64,000 nt of DNA from an uncultured Candidatus Saccharibacteria bacterium (GCA_964567555.1 CAZMNA010000001.1:152911-216910), one strand, 5' to 3'; positions 2,429 to 60,235 are shown, numbered from the stretch's first letter. The notes: a model not told the origin generated them from the sequence alone. Numbers and translations: made by a program.

Positions 2429-2952
2429 GTTACAGGGTTTTTTGCTAAAGCCTTGTGCGAATATTTCAAAACCAAAGCGTAGATGCCAAATAGGCTAGCC
2501 GTGTAGAGCGCGTCGCTTAGTGCCGTGTTTCTAAAGAACGGCAAAGCCATTTCATAGCACTGGGCAAGGCCGGCCCAAGTGTGGGCGTACATTTGGCCCC
2601 AAACCCAAACGGCAAAGTTGGTAACGGTAAAGAAAAATAGTGAAGAACCAAGTGTCAGTGCTGCTCCCCGCACAAATTTAGGCCTTCGCATAACGTAGGT
2701 GCTGGCAAGTGCAATCAGTGCGTAGCAGCCCCACGTTACCAAAATCAAATTGTGCAGGCCAATGACCAAATCACTAGCCATCATGGCCGCAACTGGAACC
2801 CAAATAGCAAAGCGGCGCGGCAAGACTGTCCCGCCAAAAATAGCCACCGCGGCCACCGGCACAAAGTTGGCCGGGTGCGGCAGAAGCCTCAAGCCCGCTG
2901 CCAGCAAAATCAGACAAACAGCAATTAGAATATTTTGGGTGCCTGTTTTCAT
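2425..2952 (-). CDS. small polytopic membrane protein (DUF6580-like), putative substrate-capture or transport component for a corrinoid
   Basis: About 5-6 TM helices. The ATG at 2952 overlaps the upstream gene's stop (ATGA), indicating translational coupling. It is the second gene behind a cobalamin riboswitch. Confidence 0.6.
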   Translation of the reverse strand: MKTGTQNILIAVCLILLAAGLRLLPHPANFVPVAAVAIFGGTVLPRRFAIWVPVAAMMASDLVIGLHNLILVTWGCYALIALASTYVMRRPKFVRGAALTLGSSLFFFTVTNFAVWVWGQMYAHTWAGLAQCYEMALPFFRNTALSDALYTASLFGIYALVLKYSHKALAKNPVT

Positions 2953-3329
2953 TGCAGCTTCCAACTTAGGTTATCACCATTTTTTGTCACGTAGCTACCC
3001 GCTCCCACTTGAGCTTCTTTGCCGTTAACATAGAAGGTCCAGTACTTGGGGCCGTTGCCGGGCGTGCCCTTAATGGATGTTACAAGATCACCAAAGCTGT
3101 AGTGTTTAACACCAACGGTGGCGTGTTTTTTTAGTAGAGCCAGCGCCGTCTGGCCTTGGACTCCGCGGTAACTAATGTAAGTTGTTTGGTTCTGGGCGTT
3201 TTTGGTTACGCCCACCTTGTGGCTAGGTGAATTAGCAATCACAGCGCCGGTTATACCGCCGCCTATCGCCAAAACCGCTGCTACAGCGATAATTACTTTT
3301 TTAATGGGGTTTTGAACTGTTCGGCTCAT
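2949..3329 (-). CDS. DUF4430-domain secreted or membrane-anchored protein (transcobalamin-like fold family), putative corrinoid-binding protein
   Basis: N-terminal TM/signal anchor. C-terminal motif YWTFYVNGKEAQVGAGSYVTKNGDNLSWKL is typical of DUF4430. Strong SD (AAGGAGGA) upstream, under a B12 riboswitch. Confidence 0.7.
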   Translation of the reverse strand: MSRTVQNPIKKVIIAVAAVLAIGGGITGAVIANSPSHKVGVTKNAQNQTTYISYRGVQGQTALALLKKHATVGVKHYSFGDLVTSIKGTPGNGPKYWTFYVNGKEAQVGAGSYVTKNGDNLSWKLQ

Positions 3330-3334
3330 TAAGA

Positions 3335-3497
3335 AAATCCTCCTTGCCTTCGCGAGAGTTCCGGCAAGGAGGATGAAATTTACTTTTCACCTTCAACTCT
3401 GCACGGAGCTTAACGAAAGCTTTGCTGTATCGGACTTTGCGCGATAGCGCTCACCGTTGCGGCACAGTGCCGGATTTACACCGGCTTCCAGCAAAAT
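3335..3497 (-). promoter_or_regulatory. cobalamin riboswitch: short aptamer plus an SD-sequestering expression platform
   Basis: Minus strand reads TTTGCTGGAAGCCGGTGTAAATCCGGCACTGTGCCGCAACGGTGAGCG...GCAAAGTCCGATACAGCAAA. This contains the conserved GGTG-AAATCC core, a CCGCAACGGTGA segment and a B12-box-like AGTCCGATAC, with closing helix TTTGCTG/CAGCAAA. Downstream hairpin TCCTCCTTGCC...GGCAAGGAGGA buries the SD of the 3329 gene. Confidence 0.75.
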
Positions 3498-3639
3498 TAT
3501 TTGTTAACTTCCTTAATATAGCACGGTGCGCAATAAGATTTTGTCGTGGTTTTTGCATTAGTTAGCCCTCTGGTTTGATATAATCTTATCTGTTATTCCC
3601 CCTTGGTTTTGAGGGAGTAGTAATAGTCTTGCTGCCTCA

Positions 3640-3710
3640 GGAAGAGCAGCCCGAGCAAAAATCACATTTTTTGCCCGGCTTTGGTGAGAAACCCGCACGG
3701 GGTGTCTCAT
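3640..3710. repeat. copy A of a conserved two-hairpin intergenic element (copy B at 60164-60235)
   Basis: GGAAGAGCAGCCCGAGCAAAAATCACATTTTTTGCCCGG...TGAGAAACCCGCACGGGGTGTCTCAT aligns with 60164-60235. Differences are concentrated in loops and the linker, plus one compensatory pair change. Confidence 0.6.
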
Positions 3711-3727
3711 AAAGCCTAAGGCGCTAA

Positions 3728-3802
3728 TCCGGAGTAGCTCAATGGTAGAGCGCCTCGCTGTTAACGAGGATGTTGCCGGTTCGAGTCCGGCCTCCGGAGC
3801 CA
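3728..3802 (+). tRNA. tRNA-Asn (anticodon GTT), CCA encoded
   Basis: Cloverleaf read by hand: acceptor TCCGGAG/CTCCGGA, D arm GCTC-AATGGTA-GAGC, anticodon arm CCTCG-CTGTTAA-CGAGG, T arm GCCGG-TTCGAGT-CCGGC, then G-CCA. Confidence 0.95.
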
Positions 3803-3810
3803 TATAAAAT

Positions 3811-3836
3811 CACTCGCCATTTGGCGGGTGTTTTTA
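3811..3836 (+). terminator. intrinsic terminator after tRNA-Asn
   Basis: Hairpin CACTCGCC-ATTT-GGCGGGTG followed by TTTTT. Confidence 0.7.
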
Positions 3837-3937
3837 TATTGTTCGCAGTCTGCGAATCGGACCGGAGGTTCGGCGGAGCGAAGCCGCGCGCAAGAATTTA
3901 TTCTGAGCACGGCTGAGCGGAGAAGGCTTTAGCCGCT

Positions 3938-3955
3938 GTCCGGCCTCCGGAGCCA
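3938..3955 (+). repeat. exact 18-nt direct repeat of the tRNA-Asn 3' end (GTCCGGCCTCCGGAGCCA; first copy 3785-3802)
   Basis: Identical 18-mer 153 nt downstream of its copy inside the tRNA. This is the pattern expected of an att-site duplication at a tRNA gene. Confidence 0.85.
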
Positions 3956-3972
3956 AGCCAGAAAAGACCAAG

Positions 3973-4002
3973 TCAGAACTGTGAAAATGGTTCTGATTTT
4001 TT
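3973..4002 (+). terminator. intrinsic terminator about 18 nt downstream of the tRNA-end repeat
   Basis: TCAGAAC-(10 nt loop)-GTTCTGA followed by TTTTTT. Confidence 0.65.
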
Positions 4003-4058
4003 GTATACCCAAGCCAGAATTGAAACCATAGCTTAGTGCCTTGCTATACTTCAAAGAG

Positions 4059-4691
4059 ATGAAAGCTCTCTTTATCCACCGTTCAGTTGGGCATAATCTT
4101 ATCGCTGAAGGCAGGCTCCGTGAGCTATTACAAGCAAGTCACGTAGAACTAGACGACTACGATATTAACAATGGTACCTTAACAACTTCAGACAACTCTG
4201 TTATAGCAAATTGGATTACAATTCCTGGCAATAATACCAACCCCGATAATCTCGCGGAGTACTTCACAAACTGGGACAAACATTTGGACGATTACGATTT
4301 AGTCCTCATAAAATCTTGTTACCCAAATAGCCACGTTAAAGACGAAGCTCAGCTTGCAGCAATACAGCGAGCTTACCAGGCAATCTTTGAGGCCTTTCGG
4401 TCTCAGAAAAAACGGCTTGCACTACTTACCTCACCACCGCTACGACCTCTCTTTACAAATAAGAGAGAGTCAGAGCTTGCAAAGAAACTCAATGAGTGGC
4501 TCTTAAGCAGGGTAAACCAGCGCGTCCATATCCTTGACTTTCATAGGCTGCTAGCTGAACCAAAAGGTCGGCATGAGGGTATGCTCCGTCGAGATTATCG
4601 CCGACTACTACCCTTCGACAACCATCCAAATAAAAAGGCCAACAAAGAACTTGCTCCATTAGTAGCTAAGTTCATTAGCGCAAACCAGTAA
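4059..4691 (+). CDS. hypothetical protein (no family recognised with confidence)
   Basis: Long ORF. I prefer the ATG at 4059 (MKALFIHRS) because a TATACT -10 box (4045-4050) lies inside the TTG-4041 extension. Confidence 0.5.
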   Translation: MKALFIHRSVGHNLIAEGRLRELLQASHVELDDYDINNGTLTTSDNSVIANWITIPGNNTNPDNLAEYFTNWDKHLDDYDLVLIKSCYPNSHVKDEAQLAAIQRAYQAIFEAFRSQKKRLALLTSPPLRPLFTNKRESELAKKLNEWLLSRVNQRVHILDFHRLLAEPKGRHEGMLRRDYRRLLPFDNHPNKKANKELAPLVAKFISANQ

Positions 4692-4707
4692 ATCCTGCTT
4701 TATGACG

Positions 4708-4736
4708 GTTATAACGTCCTCTATCGTGGTGAGCCA
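4708..4736 (+). repeat. cassette-boundary motif, copy 0 (GTTATAACGTCCTCTATCGTGGTGAGCCA)
   Basis: Starts 16 nt after the stop of the 4059-4691 gene. Its 3' end and flank GAGCCAAGC are identical to the flank of the 3938-3955 tRNA-end repeat. Confidence 0.55.
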
Positions 4737-4782
4737 AGCAAAAGCACTTTACGGTAGATTTACATGACCTATAATTACTGTT

Positions 4783-5034
4783 ATGAGACTTTTAGGTAGA
4801 GAAGTTAGCGATTCATTTTTAGAGTATTCCGGACCATTAACAGCTGAAGATGTCCTCGTAACACATGATTATGGATTAACGTATGATGAACTATGCGAAA
4901 GAATATTAGATATGAGTAACGGAGCTCATAACGTAGAGATGCCATTAGGAACTGCTCAGTGGTCCACTGGTCAACTTGGCGAACACGCAACAAGACTTTT
5001 AGCTGACGCTATACGAAAACGAAGGCAAAGTTAA
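4783..5034 (+). CDS. hypothetical small protein (83 aa)
   Basis: ORF with TATAAT (4770-4775) 7 nt before the ATG. No recognisable domain. Confidence 0.45.
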   Translation: MRLLGREVSDSFLEYSGPLTAEDVLVTHDYGLTYDELCERILDMSNGAHNVEMPLGTAQWSTGQLGEHATRLLADAIRKRRQS

Positions 5035-5049
5035 ATTCCCCAATTCAAA

Positions 5050-5079
5050 GTTCCTAAGTACGCCCACTAGCGGGAGTCA
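5050..5079 (+). repeat. cassette-boundary motif, copy 1 (GTTCCTAAGTACGCCCACTAGCGGGAGTCA)
   Basis: Starts 15 nt after the stop at 5034. Aligns with the copies at 5600, 6168 and 7181. Confidence 0.6.
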
Positions 5080-5114
5080 TTGTTCTTATGCTTAAACCAT
5101 TGTAAGCTCATTTT

Positions 5115-5585
5115 ATGGACGCCATAAGCACCATCATCGGTCTGCCTTTATTCCTTGCCTTCCTTTTCTACTTGTCGCGAGCGATTGGCTATGGATCAGC
5201 ACAAGCCTCGCGGGAAAAGCGATACGTTCTTACGACCAGTTTCGCCATTGCGCTTTTGATCTTTGTCATTTGCGGAGCAGCTATAGGCAAAAAATCTTAC
5301 GGAGCAAACAGCGAGATCCCGCTTGCGCTTCTGCCACTAGTTTTTCTTATCCCAGCCTCCTTAATAATATTTGGTTTGGCACAAGTCTTCTATGCAGATG
5401 CTGCCTCGGCGTTGTTTGAGCGCCGCCGTGAGATGGGCGGGATTAGCAGGTGGATAATACCCTCCGTCCCCAAACGCGAGTCCTTTATTTTGCGGGGGTG
5501 GATAGTTGCTGGAACTGGTACCTTCATCTTTGTAATACTCTTGTTCGGGATATACATTGATTCGTCTAACGGTTATTTACACTAG
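5115..5585 (+). CDS. hypothetical integral membrane protein (156 aa, about 4 TM)
   Basis: Hydrophobic segments throughout. TGTAAGCT (extended -10-like) lies 6 nt before the ATG. Confidence 0.5.
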   Translation: MDAISTIIGLPLFLAFLFYLSRAIGYGSAQASREKRYVLTTSFAIALLIFVICGAAIGKKSYGANSEIPLALLPLVFLIPASLIIFGLAQVFYADAASALFERRREMGGISRWIIPSVPKRESFILRGWIVAGTGTFIFVILLFGIYIDSSNGYLH

Positions 5586-5599
5586 CAGACATTGAAATA

Positions 5600-5628
5600 G
5601 TTCTAACTCACACCACTACGGAAAACCA
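5600..5628 (+). repeat. cassette-boundary motif, copy 2 (GTTCTAACTCACACCACTACGGAAAACCA)
   Basis: Starts 14 nt after the stop at 5585. Confidence 0.6.
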
Positions 5629-5665
5629 TATTGTTTATGTTGAGGTAGGAAAGCCCAATTCTATA

Positions 5666-6067
5666 CTATTCACTATTATTTGTGTTCAGATGTACCAGCT
5701 TAACAATGCCCCATGCCACTACGAGGTAGACTATCATTGCTACGAGGGTGGCTGGTTCAAATACTCCCTTTGTAACATCCCCATTGGTGGTAGTGGTACT
5801 AAATATAGCCCTGAACGGAGCACTAAAAAAGCCACTAACACTATAAACAAAACTCACGAAGCCACTAGACGGGTTTGCTCCGAGCAACTTGAGTATAAGC
5901 CGAAATATCAGGAAAACTTCTATCACGCCCAGTAGAAAATAAATACCGTTGCTGAGCGTTAAGCGTGTTTCGGCTGATGACGCGGTGGAAGTTTTCTGAC
6001 GGACTACCTGTTTGTTCCCAACATCAGCTACTTCAGTTTCTTGTACTTTTTCTTGCATCTCCGCCAT
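5666..6067 (-). CDS. YggT-like small membrane protein
   Basis: C-terminal half (IYFLLGVIEVFLIFRLILKLLGANPSSGFVSFVYSVSGFFSAPFRAIF) resembles the YggT repeat. It has its own TATAAT and an AAGGAG SD upstream on the minus strand (6070-6100). Confidence 0.5.
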   Translation of the reverse strand: MAEMQEKVQETEVADVGNKQVVRQKTSTASSAETRLTLSNGIYFLLGVIEVFLIFRLILKLLGANPSSGFVSFVYSVSGFFSAPFRAIFSTTTTNGDVTKGVFEPATLVAMIVYLVVAWGIVKLVHLNTNNSE

Positions 6068-6167
6068 GGCATTTCTCCTTAATCTTTATTCAATTATACT
6101 CTTTTTGTTATCAGAACTTCTGCCTTTTACCTAATTGTTCGGCGCATTAATTTGATTATCGCAAATT

Positions 6168-6195
6168 GTTCTAACTTCCATCACTACGGGAGTCA
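6168..6195 (+). repeat. cassette-boundary motif, copy 3 (GTTCTAACTTCCATCACTACGGGAGTCA)
   Basis: Same + orientation although the enclosed gene is on the minus strand. Followed by a +-strand hairpin ATAAGCA...TGCTTAT and a T-run (6199-6230). Confidence 0.6.
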
Positions 6196-6304
6196 GACAT
6201 AAGCATTTTGTAAGAGGTGCTTATTTTTTATCGGCAGTTTGTCATTTTGCTCGTGCTTGCGCTTAGTCAGAAACACAATTACGATTTATTAAAAGGATAC
6301 GTTA

Positions 6305-7132
6305 ATGAGCGGGATGGAACAATTTCCAGCTAAATTAGCTGAAGGTAAAACAAAGATTATTTGGGATCTACCTGGTACTGGTGAGGTAAGGATTGAAAGC
6401 AAGGATGACATCACTGCTGGCGACGGTGAAAGGCGTGATGTTATTGAGGGAAAGGCTGCATTGGCAACCCAAACTACCAGTAATTGCTTTAGGCTGCTTG
6501 AGCGAGCTGGTATACCGACGCACTTTATAGCTCAGGAGGGCGACAGAACATTTCGTGCTAAGAAAGTCGATATGCTACCTATTGAGTTAGTAGCACGAAG
6601 GATGGCATTTGGTTCTTACTTGAAGAGAAATCCCAACACTGAATCTCGTACTCGATTTAATGATGTGAGGTTTGAGAAGTTTTCTAAAGATGACCCAAAC
6701 CACGACCCAATCCTTGATTATGATTTTGTAAACGGCGTAGTCTATCGATTTGATGCACGTTTCCCCATTAGCCCAGATACGCTAATAGACACAGTAGCAA
6801 TAAGCGATTCGCCTTTTGCTATAAGCGAAGAGCAGCTTGAAGAACTCGCAAGGTTAACAACAGATACTTTTGAAGTTCTTGAGGCAGCATGGACAGACCA
6901 GGATGTCACACTCGTGGATATAAAGATTGAATGAGGAGTAACTGTTGATGGGCAAATAGTAGTTGCCGATGTAATTGATAACGACTCGTGGCGTATATGG
7001 CCAGGCGGTGACCCTGACCAGATGGTTGATAAACAACTATACCGAGATGGACAGCCACTAGATTATGTGGCTGACCGATACGCTTGGGTTGCTGAAGCAA
7101 CAAATCAGTTTAACCCTCCCGATATGGGTTGA
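6305..7132 (+). pseudogene. purC: SAICAR synthetase (purC) interrupted by one in-frame TGA at 6932-6934
   Basis: N-terminal ORF (KTKIIWDLPG...ITAGDG...) ends ...LVDIKIE-TGA. The same frame continues [26 protein letters not shown]...DKQLYRD to a stop at 7130-7132, which is the conserved continuation (E-F-G...[10 protein letters not shown]) of PurC. Confidence 0.75.
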
Positions 7133-7180
7133 GCCTGTTCTAATTCCCAGCTCATTTTCATCACCGATTCGTAGCACTTA

Positions 7181-7209
7181 GTTCTAAGTATGCCCGCTAG
7201 AGGGAGCCA
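7181..7209 (+). repeat. cassette-boundary motif, copy 4 (GTTCTAAGTATGCCCGCTAGAGGGAGCCA), preceded by a partial copy starting GTTCTAA at 7137
   Basis: Lies between the purC stop (7132) and the convergent racemase gene's stop (7225). Confidence 0.6.
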
Positions 7210-7224
7210 CTGAATTTTCATCTG

Positions 7225-7983
7225 TTATTTCATTAACCCTCTCCTTACTTTCGAACCACCTACTCTGTTGAGATGTTTTTGGTAATACTTCTTCACAAGA
7301 CTACTGGCCAACACATTGTTTGAGTTTACGATTTTTACTTTGTGCAGATTCTCACAGTTATCTATAGCAATGGGTAGTTCGGTACAGCCTGCGATTGCTG
7401 CATTAAAACCATCCCCGCTAGCTTCTAAAAATACTCTTTCAAGTATCTTACCTGCCTGGCTCAGCTTGTGAGCCATAACTAGTCCGATCGCCTCATCCAA
7501 CAGCATTTGCTGCTGTTGTGTTGTTTCCTCAAAACTAACTCCACCCTTCTTCAGGTACGGGTGATATAGTTTCTGAGATTTAGAGGTACTAGAAGTAAGC
7601 AGCAAATAGTTATGATGCTCTTTTGACGCTTCTTGTGCCACTTGCTCAACGAGGTTAACAAGAACTGTCGTGGGCTTCACTTTTATTTTGGATAGGTATA
7701 GGTGTGCAGTATTACAGGCAATACCTATAATTGTCGCCCCTTGTTCCTCAAGGTTTTTTACCATACTAACAATTTCTTGTTCAAAGGCATCGTTAAGAGT
7801 TCCTGTATTATCAACTCCTTTGATACCATGATTAACAAGAATTAGGTCGGGGTATTCGCTATCTTCAACAGCACCGTTTTGTATTGCGGCGTGCTGTAAA
7901 ACCTTTGCGAATACATCAGAACCCGCTAGTGGACCAATGCCCGAAACAACTCCTATCTTGGGCGGTAGACTTGTGTGGCTCAT
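7225..7983 (-). CDS. aspartate/glutamate racemase-family amino-acid racemase
   Basis: IGVVSGIGPLAGSDVF..., GIACNTAHLY and AGCTELPI match the two catalytic-cysteine regions of the Asp/Glu racemase family. Confidence 0.8.
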   Translation of the reverse strand: MSHTSLPPKIGVVSGIGPLAGSDVFAKVLQHAAIQNGAVEDSEYPDLILVNHGIKGVDNTGTLNDAFEQEIVSMVKNLEEQGATIIGIACNTAHLYLSKIKVKPTTVLVNLVEQVAQEASKEHHNYLLLTSSTSKSQKLYHPYLKKGGVSFEETTQQQQMLLDEAIGLVMAHKLSQAGKILERVFLEASGDGFNAAIAGCTELPIAIDNCENLHKVKIVNSNNVLASSLVKKYYQKHLNRVGGSKVRRGLMK

Positions 7984-8198
7984 ATGTGTACCTCCTCGTA
8001 TAGAGCAGTCCCGTTCGGATCTAAACTGTGGAAAAGGCTTTTATAGCTTGCGAGTTTAGGCACTACTAACTTACCGAGCACGACTGAAAGCTGTGCTTGT
8101 TGCTTATTGTATGTTTCGGGCAAGACCGTTATCTGATGTTCGCCTAGGTCTGACTTCTTACCAAGTAAGAGGAAGTCTAGAAATACACAAGTTGGCAC
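7980..8198 (-). CDS. hypothetical ORF, possibly the 3' part of a frameshifted gene continuing from 8212-8580
   Basis: GTG-start ORF whose frame stays open upstream into the end of the 8212-8580 ORF. It overlaps the racemase start by 4 nt. Confidence 0.3.
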   Translation of the reverse strand: MPTCVFLDFLLLGKKSDLGEHQITVLPETYNKQQAQLSVVLGKLVVPKLASYKSLFHSLDPNGTALYEEVHI

Positions 8199-8211
8199 AA
8201 GAGTACTTACT

Positions 8212-8580
8212 TCACTGTCGACGAAGATAGCCCAGGCGCACGCCGGCCACGCTCAATACTCCCTTCTTCAGCTTCACTAAACCGTTTTTCAACAGCTCGC
8301 TCATCTCTTGCGGAGCGACCTCTGCTAATGCAGCTTCGCTAAATATGTGATTTGCTTCATCTTTTAGTAGTTGTGTGGCTTGGTCACTTTCGACTTGGTC
8401 CAAGAATGTGTCTCCTGGCTCTAAGAAAGTTTGCTCTTGATGATAGTCATCAACAAACAAGACCAACTCTGCATCAGTCTTATCCGCTACTAAATTTTTT
8501 CCTATTTCCCAACCCTTCATACTTAACATCGATGGGCCATTTACACCGTAGTAATGCCCTGCTTCAACAATAGTTTTCAT
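8212..8580 (-). CDS. hypothetical protein (122 aa)
   Basis: ORF with an AAGGA SD. First gene after the leader/terminator element. No family recognised. Confidence 0.45.
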   Translation of the reverse strand: MKTIVEAGHYYGVNGPSMLSMKGWEIGKNLVADKTDAELVLFVDDYHQEQTFLEPGDTFLDQVESDQATQLLKDEANHIFSEAALAEVAPQEMSELLKNGLVKLKKGVLSVAGVRLGYLRRQ

Positions 8581-8602
8581 CTTAAATCCTTAACAATTAA
8601 AT

Positions 8603-8630
8603 TAAAAAGCCCCTGTGGTTAACAGGGGCT
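8603..8630 (-). terminator. intrinsic terminator inside a 5' leader (attenuator)
   Basis: Minus strand: AGCCCCTGT-TAACC-ACAGGGGCT followed by TTTTT, about 22 nt upstream of the 8580 start codon. Confidence 0.7.
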
Positions 8631-8655
8631 GTTAAGGCTTTATTTTATGACAACT

Positions 8656-8721
8656 TCAAGAACAGCCCCCGATAATACGGTGGCGGCGGATTTCAGAATT
8701 TGGCACATGGCATGAAATCAT
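8656..8721 (-). promoter_or_regulatory. candidate 21-codon leader peptide (MISCHVPNSEIRRHRIIGGCS) whose 3' end overlaps the antiterminator strand
   Basis: ATG lies 9 nt after the -10 box. The stop TGA (8658-8656) lies just 3' of GGGGCTGTT (8669-8661), which can pair with AACAGCCCC (8633-8625), the 5' half of the terminator. Confidence 0.4.
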
Positions 8722-8730
8722 AACTCTGAT

Positions 8731-8758
8731 ATTATAACACAAACGGAATACGCTGCAA
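8731..8758 (-). promoter_or_regulatory. sigma70-type promoter with extended -10 (TTGCAG-16 nt-TGTTATAAT)
   Basis: Read on the minus strand: ttgcagcgtattccgtttgtgttataat. Confidence 0.6.
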
Positions 8759-8857
8759 GTTCTGTAGCTCCATAATTTGTTATACCTAGTTCTGGGCATG
8801 ACAGCCAGCTGAGAACCAAGCATAAGCCTTTTTTAAAAATTTTGTTATGATTGGGTT

Positions 8858-10015
8858 ATGAAAAGCGGCAACTCTTCGGATGAAGCTGTGCCAGAGCTGG
8901 CAAGTGAAGTTGAAGCTTCCAAAAGAGTATTAGATGTTAAATCATCTCAAAAGAAAGCCACCAGCGTAGCCAGTGGTGTGACCAACCCAGCACCCAGCAG
9001 TTCGTCTTCTAATAGGTTTATGCCCTCGCGCTCTTTTCTGTTCACAAAGCACCTGGTGTTTATTGTTTTTGTGATTGTTTTTGGAATCATAGGCCATCGG
9101 CTTTTGTGGCCTAGTCATGCAGAAGAAACAAGCTCCGGCACCAACATCGATACTTCAAGCAAGACTGCTGTTAACGATGCCTATTGGAGCCTTTGGAACC
9201 CAGCGATGACAACATCTGCTGGCTGGACCGGTTCTGTAAAGCCCTGTGACGCCGGAACTATGATGGCTACAGCCCGAAACTCGGAAGTTGACGCCATAAA
9301 CTTTGTGCGGCGCTTGCAGCGGCTAAAACCAATTAGCGCCAGAGATAGTGCTGCCAACAATGCTGCCATGAAAGCATCGCTGATAGTGGAGGCAAATGGT
9401 GCCCCAAACCACTCCCCCCCAGCAACTGGCCCGGGCTCGACGTGCTATAGCAGCGAGGGGGCCGCTGTTTCAGCCCAGTCCAATCTAGGTATAGATTATG
9501 TGGTTTCAACGCCCGATAGCACCCCCGTTGGCGTATTGGTTAAGGGTTACCTAGACGAGCGTATACCCCCCGCCGAAAACAAAACCCTAGGTCACAGGCG
9601 TCGACTTTCATACCCAGACGCAAATGTTTTTGGGATTGGCACAACTGCCCATGCTTCTGCAATTCGGGTCATTGGTCTTTCAACTTCTGCAGCAAATCCG
9701 AGCCCTGATGTAATGTGGCCAACGGGGGGCTACTTCCCCAAACAGCTCGCACCCCATACCTGGTCTTTAACTGGCAGCAGAACAACCGCAGACTTTTCGG
9801 CGGCAACGCTCAAGGTGACTCATAACGGAAATGTCATAAAAGGAATAGATAAGTATGTTACTGACCCCCGCTATGGCCCTTTGCCTACGCTTGCTTGGAG
9901 TATGCCTTTTCAATACGACAAAAGTGGTGGCTATATTGTTACTGTAGGTAATATCAAAGGAGACGGTGCAACAAGAATATCCTACAAAGTCCGTTTCTTT
10001 GACCCAGTACAGTAA
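8858..10015 (+). CDS. membrane-anchored secreted CAP/SCP-domain protein
   Basis: N-terminal TM (LVFIVFVIVFGIIG). CAP-like region (AINFVRRLQRLKPI...NNAAMKASL...GHRRRLSYPDANVFGIG). Confidence 0.6.
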   Translation: MKSGNSSDEAVPELASEVEASKRVLDVKSSQKKATSVASGVTNPAPSSSSSNRFMPSRSFLFTKHLVFIVFVIVFGIIGHRLLWPSHAEETSSGTNIDTSSKTAVNDAYWSLWNPAMTTSAGWTGSVKPCDAGTMMATARNSEVDAINFVRRLQRLKPISARDSAANNAAMKASLIVEANGAPNHSPPATGPGSTCYSSEGAAVSAQSNLGIDYVVSTPDSTPVGVLVKGYLDERIPPAENKTLGHRRRLSYPDANVFGIGTTAHASAIRVIGLSTSAANPSPDVMWPTGGYFPKQLAPHTWSLTGSRTTADFSAATLKVTHNGNVIKGIDKYVTDPRYGPLPTLAWSMPFQYDKSGGYIVTVGNIKGDGATRISYKVRFFDPVQ

Positions 10016-10045
10016 AGCCATAGCTTCCCCTACCGTGGGGAGCCA
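10016..10045 (+). repeat. cassette-boundary motif, copy 5 (AGCCATAGCTTCCCCTACCGTGGGGAGCCA)
   Basis: Begins immediately after the stop at 10015. About 19 of 26 positions match copy 0 (CGTCCTCTATCGTGGTGAGCCAAGCA). A small hairpin TCCCC/GGGGA can form. Confidence 0.45.
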
Positions 10046-10064
10046 ACTTTGATATATTTATGTT

Positions 10065-10376
10065 ATGGGTAAAGCAAAAATTTCCGGCGGTGTGGCACAC
10101 CCTCTGCCCTCCGATTTACGCAACGTTCTAGAGTCTGACGGATCTGTGTTAGAACGCTGGGAAGATCTCACACCACTGGCCCGCAATGAATGGATTTGCT
10201 GGACAATTACAGTTAAGCAACAAAATACAAGGGACGAACATGTTAAGCGGGTAGTTTCTGAGCTAAAAGAAGGCAAGCGCCGACCTTGCTGCTGGGCCGG
10301 TTGTATGCACCGCAAAGACAAAGCCCTAAGCCCGTCACAAAAGTGGGTACTTTCTAGACAATCTGGTTCCAAATAA
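10065..10376 (+). CDS. YdeI/OmpD-associated family protein
   Basis: LTPLARNEWICWTITVKQQNTRDEHVKRVVSELKEGKRRPCCWAGC matches the YdeI/bacteriocin-protection family signature. Confidence 0.65.
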   Translation: MGKAKISGGVAHPLPSDLRNVLESDGSVLERWEDLTPLARNEWICWTITVKQQNTRDEHVKRVVSELKEGKRRPCCWAGCMHRKDKALSPSQKWVLSRQSGSK

Positions 10377-60163: not shown

Positions 60164-60235
60164 GGAAGAGCAGCCTGAGCAAAAATCGCACTTTTTGCCC
60201 AGCGCGATGAGAAACCCATGAAATGGGTGTCTCAT
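60164..60235. repeat. copy B of the two-hairpin element; fills the rpmH-rnpA intergenic spacer
   Basis: GGAAGAGCAGCCTGAGCAAAAATCGCACTTTTTGCCCAG...ATGAGAAACCCATGAAATGGGTGTCTCAT. It ends 1 nt from the rpmH stop codon. Confidence 0.6.

Follow-up and report, generated by a model that had tools for sequence, protein, structure and literature searches.

Islands that grow by accretion at transfer RNA (tRNA) genes are a known phenomenon (10.1101/2020.12.28.424599), and the geometry of the attachment (att) sites of serine integrases is likewise established, with the zinc-ribbon-domain box of a large serine recombinase (LSR) spanning base pairs (bp) 11-19 in attB and bp 16-24 in attP, that is, lying 5 bp further out in attP (PMC3783163). 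The attC sites of integrons are imperfect palindromes of 57-141 nucleotides (nt) with RYYYAAC...GTTRRRY boxes, which fold as single strands. Here we analyzed a 64-kb stretch of DNA from an uncultured Candidatus Saccharibacteria bacterium (hereafter the window), in which a tRNA-Asn gene is followed by an array of short units that end in copies of one 29-nt motif. We consider it likely that positions 3803-10045 of the window form an accretion island at an attachment site in the 3' end of tRNA-Asn, probably built by an LSR. In the searchable literature we found no earlier description of this tRNA-targeting LSR family, of its 29-nt half-site or of the arrays of recombinase-less units, and a search for the exact motif strings returned nothing relevant.

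RESULTS

A conserved motif recurs downstream of tRNA-Asn

The motif is a conserved DNA site of the form GTTCTAAC-N13-GGGGAGCCA, with the family consensus GTTCTAAC TTC[CG][AT]TC CACTAC GG[GA]GAGCCA. Seven copies were found in the window, all on the + strand and all between tRNA-Asn and the OmdA/YdeI gene (Table 1), and the other 58 kb of the window contain none. Six of these had been listed in an earlier note made from the sequence alone; we recovered them at the same positions and on the same strand, together with the 18 nt at 3938-3955 that repeat the tRNA end exactly and the reported range of distances between stop codon and motif (measured as 16, 15, 14, 48, and 0 nt), and added one more at 8789-8818 (GTTCTGGGCATGACAGCCAGCTGAGAACCA, with AGCATAAGCC behind it). 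That the motif keeps its + orientation where the enclosed gene is inverted also held, as the YggT-like gene is on the - strand and the copy behind it on the + strand. A partial GTTCTAA that the note had placed at 7137 found no support.

The resemblance among the copies exceeded chance expectation, as judged by three measures. A hidden Markov model (HMM), trained only on 63 independent metagenome copies and run over the 64 kb, recovered the copies at 6168 (E=5e-6), 7181 (E=4e-5), 5050 (E=3e-4), and 5600 (E=4e-3), and no other site in the 64 kb scored above ~4.6 bits. A degenerate pattern with up to three mismatches yielded 3 matches compared to 0.01 expected, copy 7181 being exact and copy 5600 having two mismatches. 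Finally, the edit distances of the seven copies to their nearest independent copy were 1, 2, 4, 4, 6, 8, and 9, as compared to mostly 13-17 edits from the motif family for random 29-mers drawn from the window. Copy 6168 differed by a single edit from a metagenome copy, copy 4708 by two edits from a copy in the relative L022 (L numbers are our handles for the loci compared), and copy 8789 was at distance 8 from the family; none of the window copies came as close to the tRNA end as to the family. For the weaker copies at 4708, 8789, and 10016, membership is suggested by context, namely the near-twin in L022, a shared flank, and the place before OmdA. The flanks behind 4708 and 8789 are AGCAAAAGCAC and AGCATAAGCC, and this flank, AGCA[TA]AAGC, was also seen behind many copies elsewhere; copy 10016 has 81% identity to 4711-4737 and stands directly before OmdA, a placement that recurs in L022, L063, L105, and L167.

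Scanning metagenomes with the degenerate pattern, we obtained at least 146 instances in at least 119 loci, with all pattern matches falling on one strand only, whereas a scan of viral contigs with the same pattern gave no match. Among the matches listed, a tRNA was present in 33 motif loci and was tRNA-Asn in 30 of these 33, located upstream and on the strand of the motif in 27 of the 30 loci, over a G+C (GC) content of 0.34-0.63. Four related genomes carried near-identical copies downstream of tRNA-Asn, in the orientation of the tRNA and with unrelated genes around them. The copies avoided genes, as only 2 of 96 lay inside long open reading frames (ORFs) and 65 of 96 lay within 150 nt past a co-oriented stop codon. 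Of 110 copies, 51 had a terminator-like hairpin behind them and 2 had one in front; the terminators behind the motif can be explained as the downstream flank of the tRNA itself. The cargo of the units is of the accessory type (hydrolases, methyltransferases, Fic, HEPN/MNT, metal resistance), and the motif is near-identical across units that lack a recombinase.

Insertions are bounded by the tRNA end and the motif

Comparing occupied loci with an empty one, we found that the inserted elements begin at the tRNA end and stop at the motif. At the empty site L073, the tRNA-Asn end is joined straight to AGCATAAGCAC, followed by a terminator, ATTTGATATAG, and OmdA, and at two occupied loci, L167 and L063, this flank of AGCATAAGCAC, terminator, and OmdA stands behind the motif, with 10.6 kb between tRNA and motif. 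The homology of the empty L073 to the occupied arrangement starts at GAGCCA. Two strains of one species, L158 and L021 (98.9% identity over 5 kb), differ by a 0.5-kb VKOR unit that is inserted exactly at the tRNA end and closed by GTTCTGAACAGGTCCACTAAGCCGAGCCA, and the ORF of the next unit differs as well (SET domain versus PhnB-like). Their breakpoints lie at GAGCCA, and because the sequence common to all of these junctions is GAGCCAAG, the crossover would have taken place there; the strain and empty-site comparisons together bracket it within GAGCCA(AG). These strains thus differ by whole units, in keeping with the serial integration that the earlier note had offered as one reading.

The Saccharimonadales population of the window is represented by repeated assemblies from one metagenome set, among which contig L018 diverges exactly after the tRNA end (window 3804) and several assemblies break at the tRNA. 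In at least 15 loci, an OmdA homologue lies beside the tRNA or beside the last motif, which marks OmdA as the ancestral neighbor of tRNA-Asn, and the empty site L073 bears out this arrangement. With OmdA as the native neighbor, all of window 3803-10045 is inserted material, and the 24-nt 3' part of tRNA-Asn (GTTCGAGTCCGGCCTCCGGAGCCA) would constitute the bacterial-side left half-site (B).

The motif exceeds the tRNA end by 5 nt in length

Measured from GTTC to CCA, the tRNA end spans 24 nt and the motif 29 nt, a difference of +5 nt, and the two sites have in common the outer GTTC box and the inner GAGCCA. Upon setting the central dinucleotide at the GA of GGAGCCA, the outer box of the tRNA occupied bp 11-19 and that of the motif bp 16-24, so that the left-side spacing of motif versus tRNA end agrees with the published positions for attP versus attB. 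We suggest that this attP/attB offset accounts for the likeness between the motif and the tRNA end, of which the motif is no copy, and that the motif is conserved across lineages because it has to match a target, namely the T-loop and acceptor end of tRNA-Asn, that is conserved as well. On the right side of the site, the flanks beside LSR genes carry a ..CGAAC box ending at about +12, and some attB flanks carry GTTAGAAC ending at +10, making a roughly symmetric 34-bp site. Flanks of the AGCATAAGCAC type have no clear box, and an inverted GTTAGAAC behind the motif was present in some lineages only.

Large serine recombinases lie at the junctions of related loci

Recombinase genes of the LSR type, defined here by the combination of Resolvase, Recombinase, and Zn_ribbon_recom domains, were found right at the junctions in question. 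In all three Saccharimonadales loci with enough sequence, an LSR element is closed by the motif 8-11 kb from the tRNA: in L164, tRNA-Asn is followed by a 535-amino acid (aa) LSR, ~11 kb of DNA, and a consensus motif; in L167, by an LSR, 10.6 kb, the motif, and then AGCATAAGCAC with its terminator and OmdA; and in L169, by an LSR, 8.3 kb, the motif, and more small motif-ended units. Full-length LSR genes that are convergent with and overlap the tRNA 3' end were seen in L027/L164, L167, L169, and L171 at tRNA-Asn, in L160 at tRNA-Lys, and in L172 at tRNA-Gln. An LSR gene or remnant lies directly past the tRNA 3' end in L018, L027, and L161, as well as at tRNA-Lys in L160, and directly past a motif copy in L089, L153, and L160, with remnants in L018, L161, L160, L089, and L153. 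Overall, at least seven genomes have an LSR gene or remnant right at the junction. Past the tRNA, L018 encodes the C-terminal end of a protein with homologues that have the recombinase zinc-ribbon domain; the fragment itself matched no Pfam family, its link to LSRs running via homologues only. The LSR family is large, with 4139 proteins at E<=1e-30, mostly from Patescibacteria where the source is named, and we infer that an enzyme of this family acted at the sites described here.

The LSR reading frames of L018 (1-422), L160 (16564-18243), and L164 (10001-11608) run through the antisense strand of the tRNA 3' end, the C-termini encoded across it ending in WLRRPDSNRQHPR and in WDSNPRHPA directly before the stop codon. 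As the C-terminus of the recombinase is encoded across the attachment site, it would change on integration. The tRNA-Lys island of L160 (10001-18278) holds a full LSR element, a motif-like site with a 14-nt insertion (GCTCTAAC...TCCACTAGGCGGAGCCA), and a second LSR remnant, whose flank is identical to that of the LSR remnant at tRNA-Asn in L018; more than one tRNA appears to serve as a target of this LSR family. In L164, L171, and L172, at the recombinase side of the junction and on the strand of the tRNA, about 60-75 nt past the tRNA end, we observed a conserved stretch consisting of T[TC]GTG[TA][AG]CGAAC, a hairpin, and a direct copy of GGTTCTAACC at about +64, which could reflect either a coding constraint on the LSR C-terminus or an extra binding site.

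Long arrays occur in a GC-richer lineage

In a GC-richer lineage, a 27-kb contig carries at least 10 motif-ended units with near-identical repeats of ~110 nt, in which the hairpin behind the motif varies by compensatory changes (flanks, judged by eye). Unit order differs between related contigs of this lineage, with breakpoints within the repeat. Given that no LSR was found in 25 kb of these arrays and that unit order is reshuffled, small units may be mobilized in trans. From one flanking gene, whose best named relatives, from Actinobacteria metagenome-assembled genomes, have 72-76% identity, the lineage can be placed, weakly, near Actinobacteria. In the array L051, the motif and most of the genes are on opposite strands. 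The same array contains, at 2601-4400, a group II intron (RF02001, RF01998) with a reverse-transcriptase ORF (2923-4317) that adjoins a motif copy, a placement that recalls group IIC introns targeting attC sites or terminators.

Layout of the window

The motif ends split 3803-10045 into ~8 units of 0.15-1.6 kb with mixed cargo, listed in Table 1.

Table 1. Features of the window from tRNA-Asn to the native right flank, with coordinates in the 64-kb stretch
Feature	Coordinates	Strand	Content	Support
tRNA-Asn(GTT)	3728-3802	+		ARAGORN; Rfam, 73 bits
First unit, 153 nt	3803-3955	+	Terminator 3811-3830; conserved structured stretch; terminal exact 18-nt copy of the tRNA-Asn 3' end, 3938-3955	
Unit 1	3956-4736	+	Terminator-like hairpin 3970-3999; GDSL/SGNH-like ORF 4059-4691; motif 4708-4736	Weak Lipase_GDSL_2 match (Pfam)
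Unit 2	4737-5079	+	Promoter-like site 4748-4775; 83-aa ORF 4783-5034; motif 5050-5079	
Unit 3	5080-5628	+	156-aa membrane ORF 5115-5585; motif 5600-5628	
Unit 4	5629-6195	+	YggT-like ORF 5666-6067 (- strand); motif 6168-6195	Weak YGGT match (Pfam)
Unit 5	6196-7209	+	purC 6305-7132 with in-frame TGA 6932-6934; motif 7181-7209	SAICAR_synt match, 3e-37 (Pfam)
Unit 6	7210-8818	+	Asp/Glu racemase 7225-7983 (- strand); 122-aa ORF 8212-8580 (- strand); degenerate motif 8789-8818, then AGCATAAGCC	
Unit 7	8819-10045	+	CAP-like secreted protein 8858-10015; motif 10016-10045, the outermost junction	
Native right flank (B' side)	10046-10376	+	ACTTTGATATA..., then OmdA/YdeI gene 10065-10376	OmdA match, 3.8e-13 (Pfam)

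The first unit differs from the others in how it ends. In the window, as in L025 and L032, the tRNA 3' end is repeated directly and exactly; the repeat of the window closes the structured unit of ~150 nt rather than the island, whose other borders are the distinct 29-nt motif, and may be regarded as a putative second B-type end. Homologous units of ~100-150 nt were found in at least nine other loci, e.g., L025 (18275-18409), L032, L048, L054, L072, L077, L095, and L104. In the structured part (~3853-3955), a 5' CCGGAGG can pair with a 3' CCTCCGG, and an internal hairpin shows compensatory changes in 8 of 18 predicted pairs; a search of Rfam with this unit found no family. The unit could serve as a second landing site, or else encode a small RNA of tRNA-like form. 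As it stands at the far end of the island in L025, insertions can take place on either side of it.

Between 3600 and 10500, the number of promoter-like sites (11, compared to 10.7 in shuffles) was not enriched, and neither was that of terminator-like sites (8, compared to 7.0). The claim of the earlier note that most units carry a -10 box of their own therefore remained unproven, the sole strong promoter match in this range being the one in unit 2.

Further observations concern single genes and the upstream flank. The in-frame TGA of purC is identical across all contigs of the window's population and could mark a pseudogene or else read-through or recoding. Two adjacent ORFs of 72 and 122 aa on the - strand (7980-8580), separated by a 13-nt gap and without a Pfam family, may be one disrupted gene. 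Upstream of tRNA-Asn (~3640-3710) lies a 70-nt element with two hairpins, an inverted copy of which (82%) is found at 60164-60235 on the - strand between rpmH and rnpA. The strain variant L019 departs from the window at 3722, just past this element, and has no tRNA-Asn there.

DISCUSSION

Probable accretion at the tRNA end

In the account that we favor, accretion at tRNA-Asn by an LSR, mobile units would be inserted at the tRNA end through site-specific recombination, the crossover falling within GAGCCA(AG); the tRNA would stay intact each time, and older units would be shifted downstream. Each unit would then be closed by an attR-type junction, whose left half would be a 29-nt site belonging to the unit itself, i.e., the motif, and whose right half would be whatever had followed the tRNA before, often the tRNA terminator. 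The recombinase would be an LSR of the family that is very common in Patescibacteria and whose genes are convergent with, and overlap, tRNA 3' ends. With no recombinase left in the window and several copies in a degenerate state, the array probably constitutes a fixed record of earlier insertions and carries accessory genes of mixed type. Among the readings offered in the earlier note, that of scars from serial integrations hence gains support from the empty site, the LSR elements, and the strain variation, with the amendment that the motif would be a half-site of the element instead of a degenerate tRNA end.

Several points weigh against this account. In the 64-kb window, tblastn detected no LSR and Pfam no recombinase family among 30 ORFs, which bears out the earlier statement that the window has no integrase. 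Batch Pfam analysis of 246 ORFs near metagenome copies gave no recurrent recombinase family, although families found in a single ORF went unlisted there, so that a rare integrase could escape, and the long arrays of the GC-richer lineage have no LSR within 25 kb. Units of 0.3-1.6 kb, such as those of the window, are too small for autonomy. The right half-sites do not have the inverted symmetry usual for LSR attP and attB. Furthermore, canonical LSRs do not join attP with attL, and tandem accretion at a tRNA needs something similar. Finally, LSRs were the sole enzyme class that was directly searched, and a tyrosine recombinase may act in trans.

Alternative explanations

The alternative that fares best is an active, integron-like system, in which recombinase-less single-gene units would be excised, inserted at tRNA-Asn, and reshuffled by a recombinase acting in trans (an LSR or another), with the window being a working array. 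The variable 0.5-kb unit of L158 and L021 is in line with this idea, as it holds one gene and has exact breakpoints, and so are the 27-kb contig arrays with their 10 or more units and near-identical ~110-nt repeats, the unit order that varies among related contigs with breakpoints in the repeat, the near-identity of the motif in units without a recombinase, and the accessory-type cargo. By contrast, several copies in the window are degenerate (4-9 edits), the array is identical in all contigs of the window's population, and no circular form was seen; homologous recombination between the repeats could reshuffle units as well, and the reactions required are disallowed by the canonical LSR rules. 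We regard a working array of this kind as possible but doubtful. With similar reserve, we entertain the broader notion of an undescribed cassette system, present in Patescibacteria and at least one unrelated GC-richer lineage, which would use the tRNA-Asn 3' end for entry, one 29-nt half-site per cassette, and an LSR in trans.

These sites might instead be used by a tyrosine recombinase, be it a classical integrase that targets tRNAs or an enzyme of the Xer type, the neighboring LSR genes then being only one kind of passenger. Most known tRNA-linked islands do use tyrosine integrases (910 of 937 in the tycheposon preprint, 10.1101/2020.12.28.424599), exact direct repeats of the tRNA 3' end exist in the window (3938-3955), L025, and L032, and a site length of ~29 nt suits a simple core site. 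However, among the 246 ORFs near the motif no Phage_integrase family had two or more members, a crude screen of 340 ORFs for the signature gave nothing, and the loci with an LSR gene or remnant right at the junction come from at least seven genomes. The offset of +5 nt would be meaningless for a tyrosine recombinase, and the motif does not have inverted arms around a spacer of 6-8 nt. Overall, we consider a tyrosine recombinase unlikely.

Least tenable, and very improbable in our view, is the suggestion of the earlier note that the motif is a transcribed RNA element of the 3' end, which we considered as an element of the 3' untranslated region or of RNA processing, with a tRNA-like CCA end ahead of a terminator: the motif does lie 0-30 nt past co-oriented stop codons in many loci, often has a terminator behind it, and shares its CCA ending with the tRNA, but its variable columns showed no base-pair covariation (the top mutual-information pairs having a low Watson-Crick fraction), the folding z-scores of window copies were unremarkable (-0.9 and +0.7), Rfam gave no match, the genes of L051 are mostly on the opposite strand, and a role in RNA would not account for a motif at insertion breakpoints. 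With no covariation, no Rfam match, and plain folding, it is hence the DNA sequence that is conserved and not an RNA structure.

Other identities were rejected. The motif is no integron attC, as it has no palindrome and no RYYYAAC...GTTRRRY boxes (GTTCTAA does not fit GTTRRRY), and the window copies fold no better than shuffles. As for an IntI/attI module, the sequence preceding tRNA-Asn yielded no recombinase in any of the window, L062, and L116, and no Phage_integrase family recurred near the motif. The copies are not decayed tRNA copies: they resemble one another, as well as copies from other phyla-level GC classes, more closely than they resemble the tRNA. Judged by eye, neither a sigma-54 or other promoter nor a dif/Xer site fits in spacing and sequence, and dif would not form arrays.

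Implications

In Patescibacteria, Saccharibacteria included, genomes are tiny and few ways of gaining genes are recognized, and the end of tRNA-Asn would be a hot spot where accessory genes are acquired unit by unit. The 29-nt signature can locate such islands in any assembly. A very large tRNA-targeting family of serine recombinases, together with both site halves, should be useful for the prediction of att sites and possibly for genome engineering. If recombinase-less single-gene units prove to be mobile, a serine recombinase and a tRNA gene would together form the basis of cassette capture, which would make the system a counterpart of integrons in function that arose by an unrelated route.

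Comparison with known systems

With described LSR elements, the loci studied here have in common that the recombinase gene lies beside the junction, that the element is bounded by hybrid sites, that the empty site restores the tRNA with its native flank, and that the outer box of the element-side half-site lies 5 bp further out (PMC3783163). They differ from them in that a tRNA 3' end (that of tRNA-Asn and, in relatives, also of tRNA-Lys and tRNA-Gln), rather than a protein-coding gene, serves as target, that the recombinase ORF reads through the tRNA in antisense, that the right half-sites are not clearly symmetric, and that units stand in tandem, most of them without a recombinase.

The tycheposon islands of Prochlorococcus likewise arise by serial integration at one tRNA, which pushes older elements deeper, and contain att remnants, fragmented integrases, and cargo genes (10.1101/2020.12.28.424599). 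Their scars are partial tRNA copies and their enzymes mostly tyrosine recombinases, whereas here we find a distinct, probably element-derived half-site and LSRs, in hosts that comprise Saccharimonadales and at least one GC-richer lineage.

Like integron arrays and clusters of attC sites lacking integron integrases (CALINs), to which the earlier note had compared the window, our arrays are one-directional, consist of small, mostly single-gene units each closed by a recombination site, have a fixed entry site, occur without a nearby integrase, differ in order between relatives, and can have a group II intron beside the site (L051). The comparison with CALINs therefore stands as a functional analogy, and membership fails because there is no attC-like palindrome (no R''/L''-L'/R' boxes) and no IntI or attI-intI module. 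In contrast to the sites of integrons, the site described here is conserved across lineages by its sequence and not by its structure, and the place of entry is the end of a tRNA gene.

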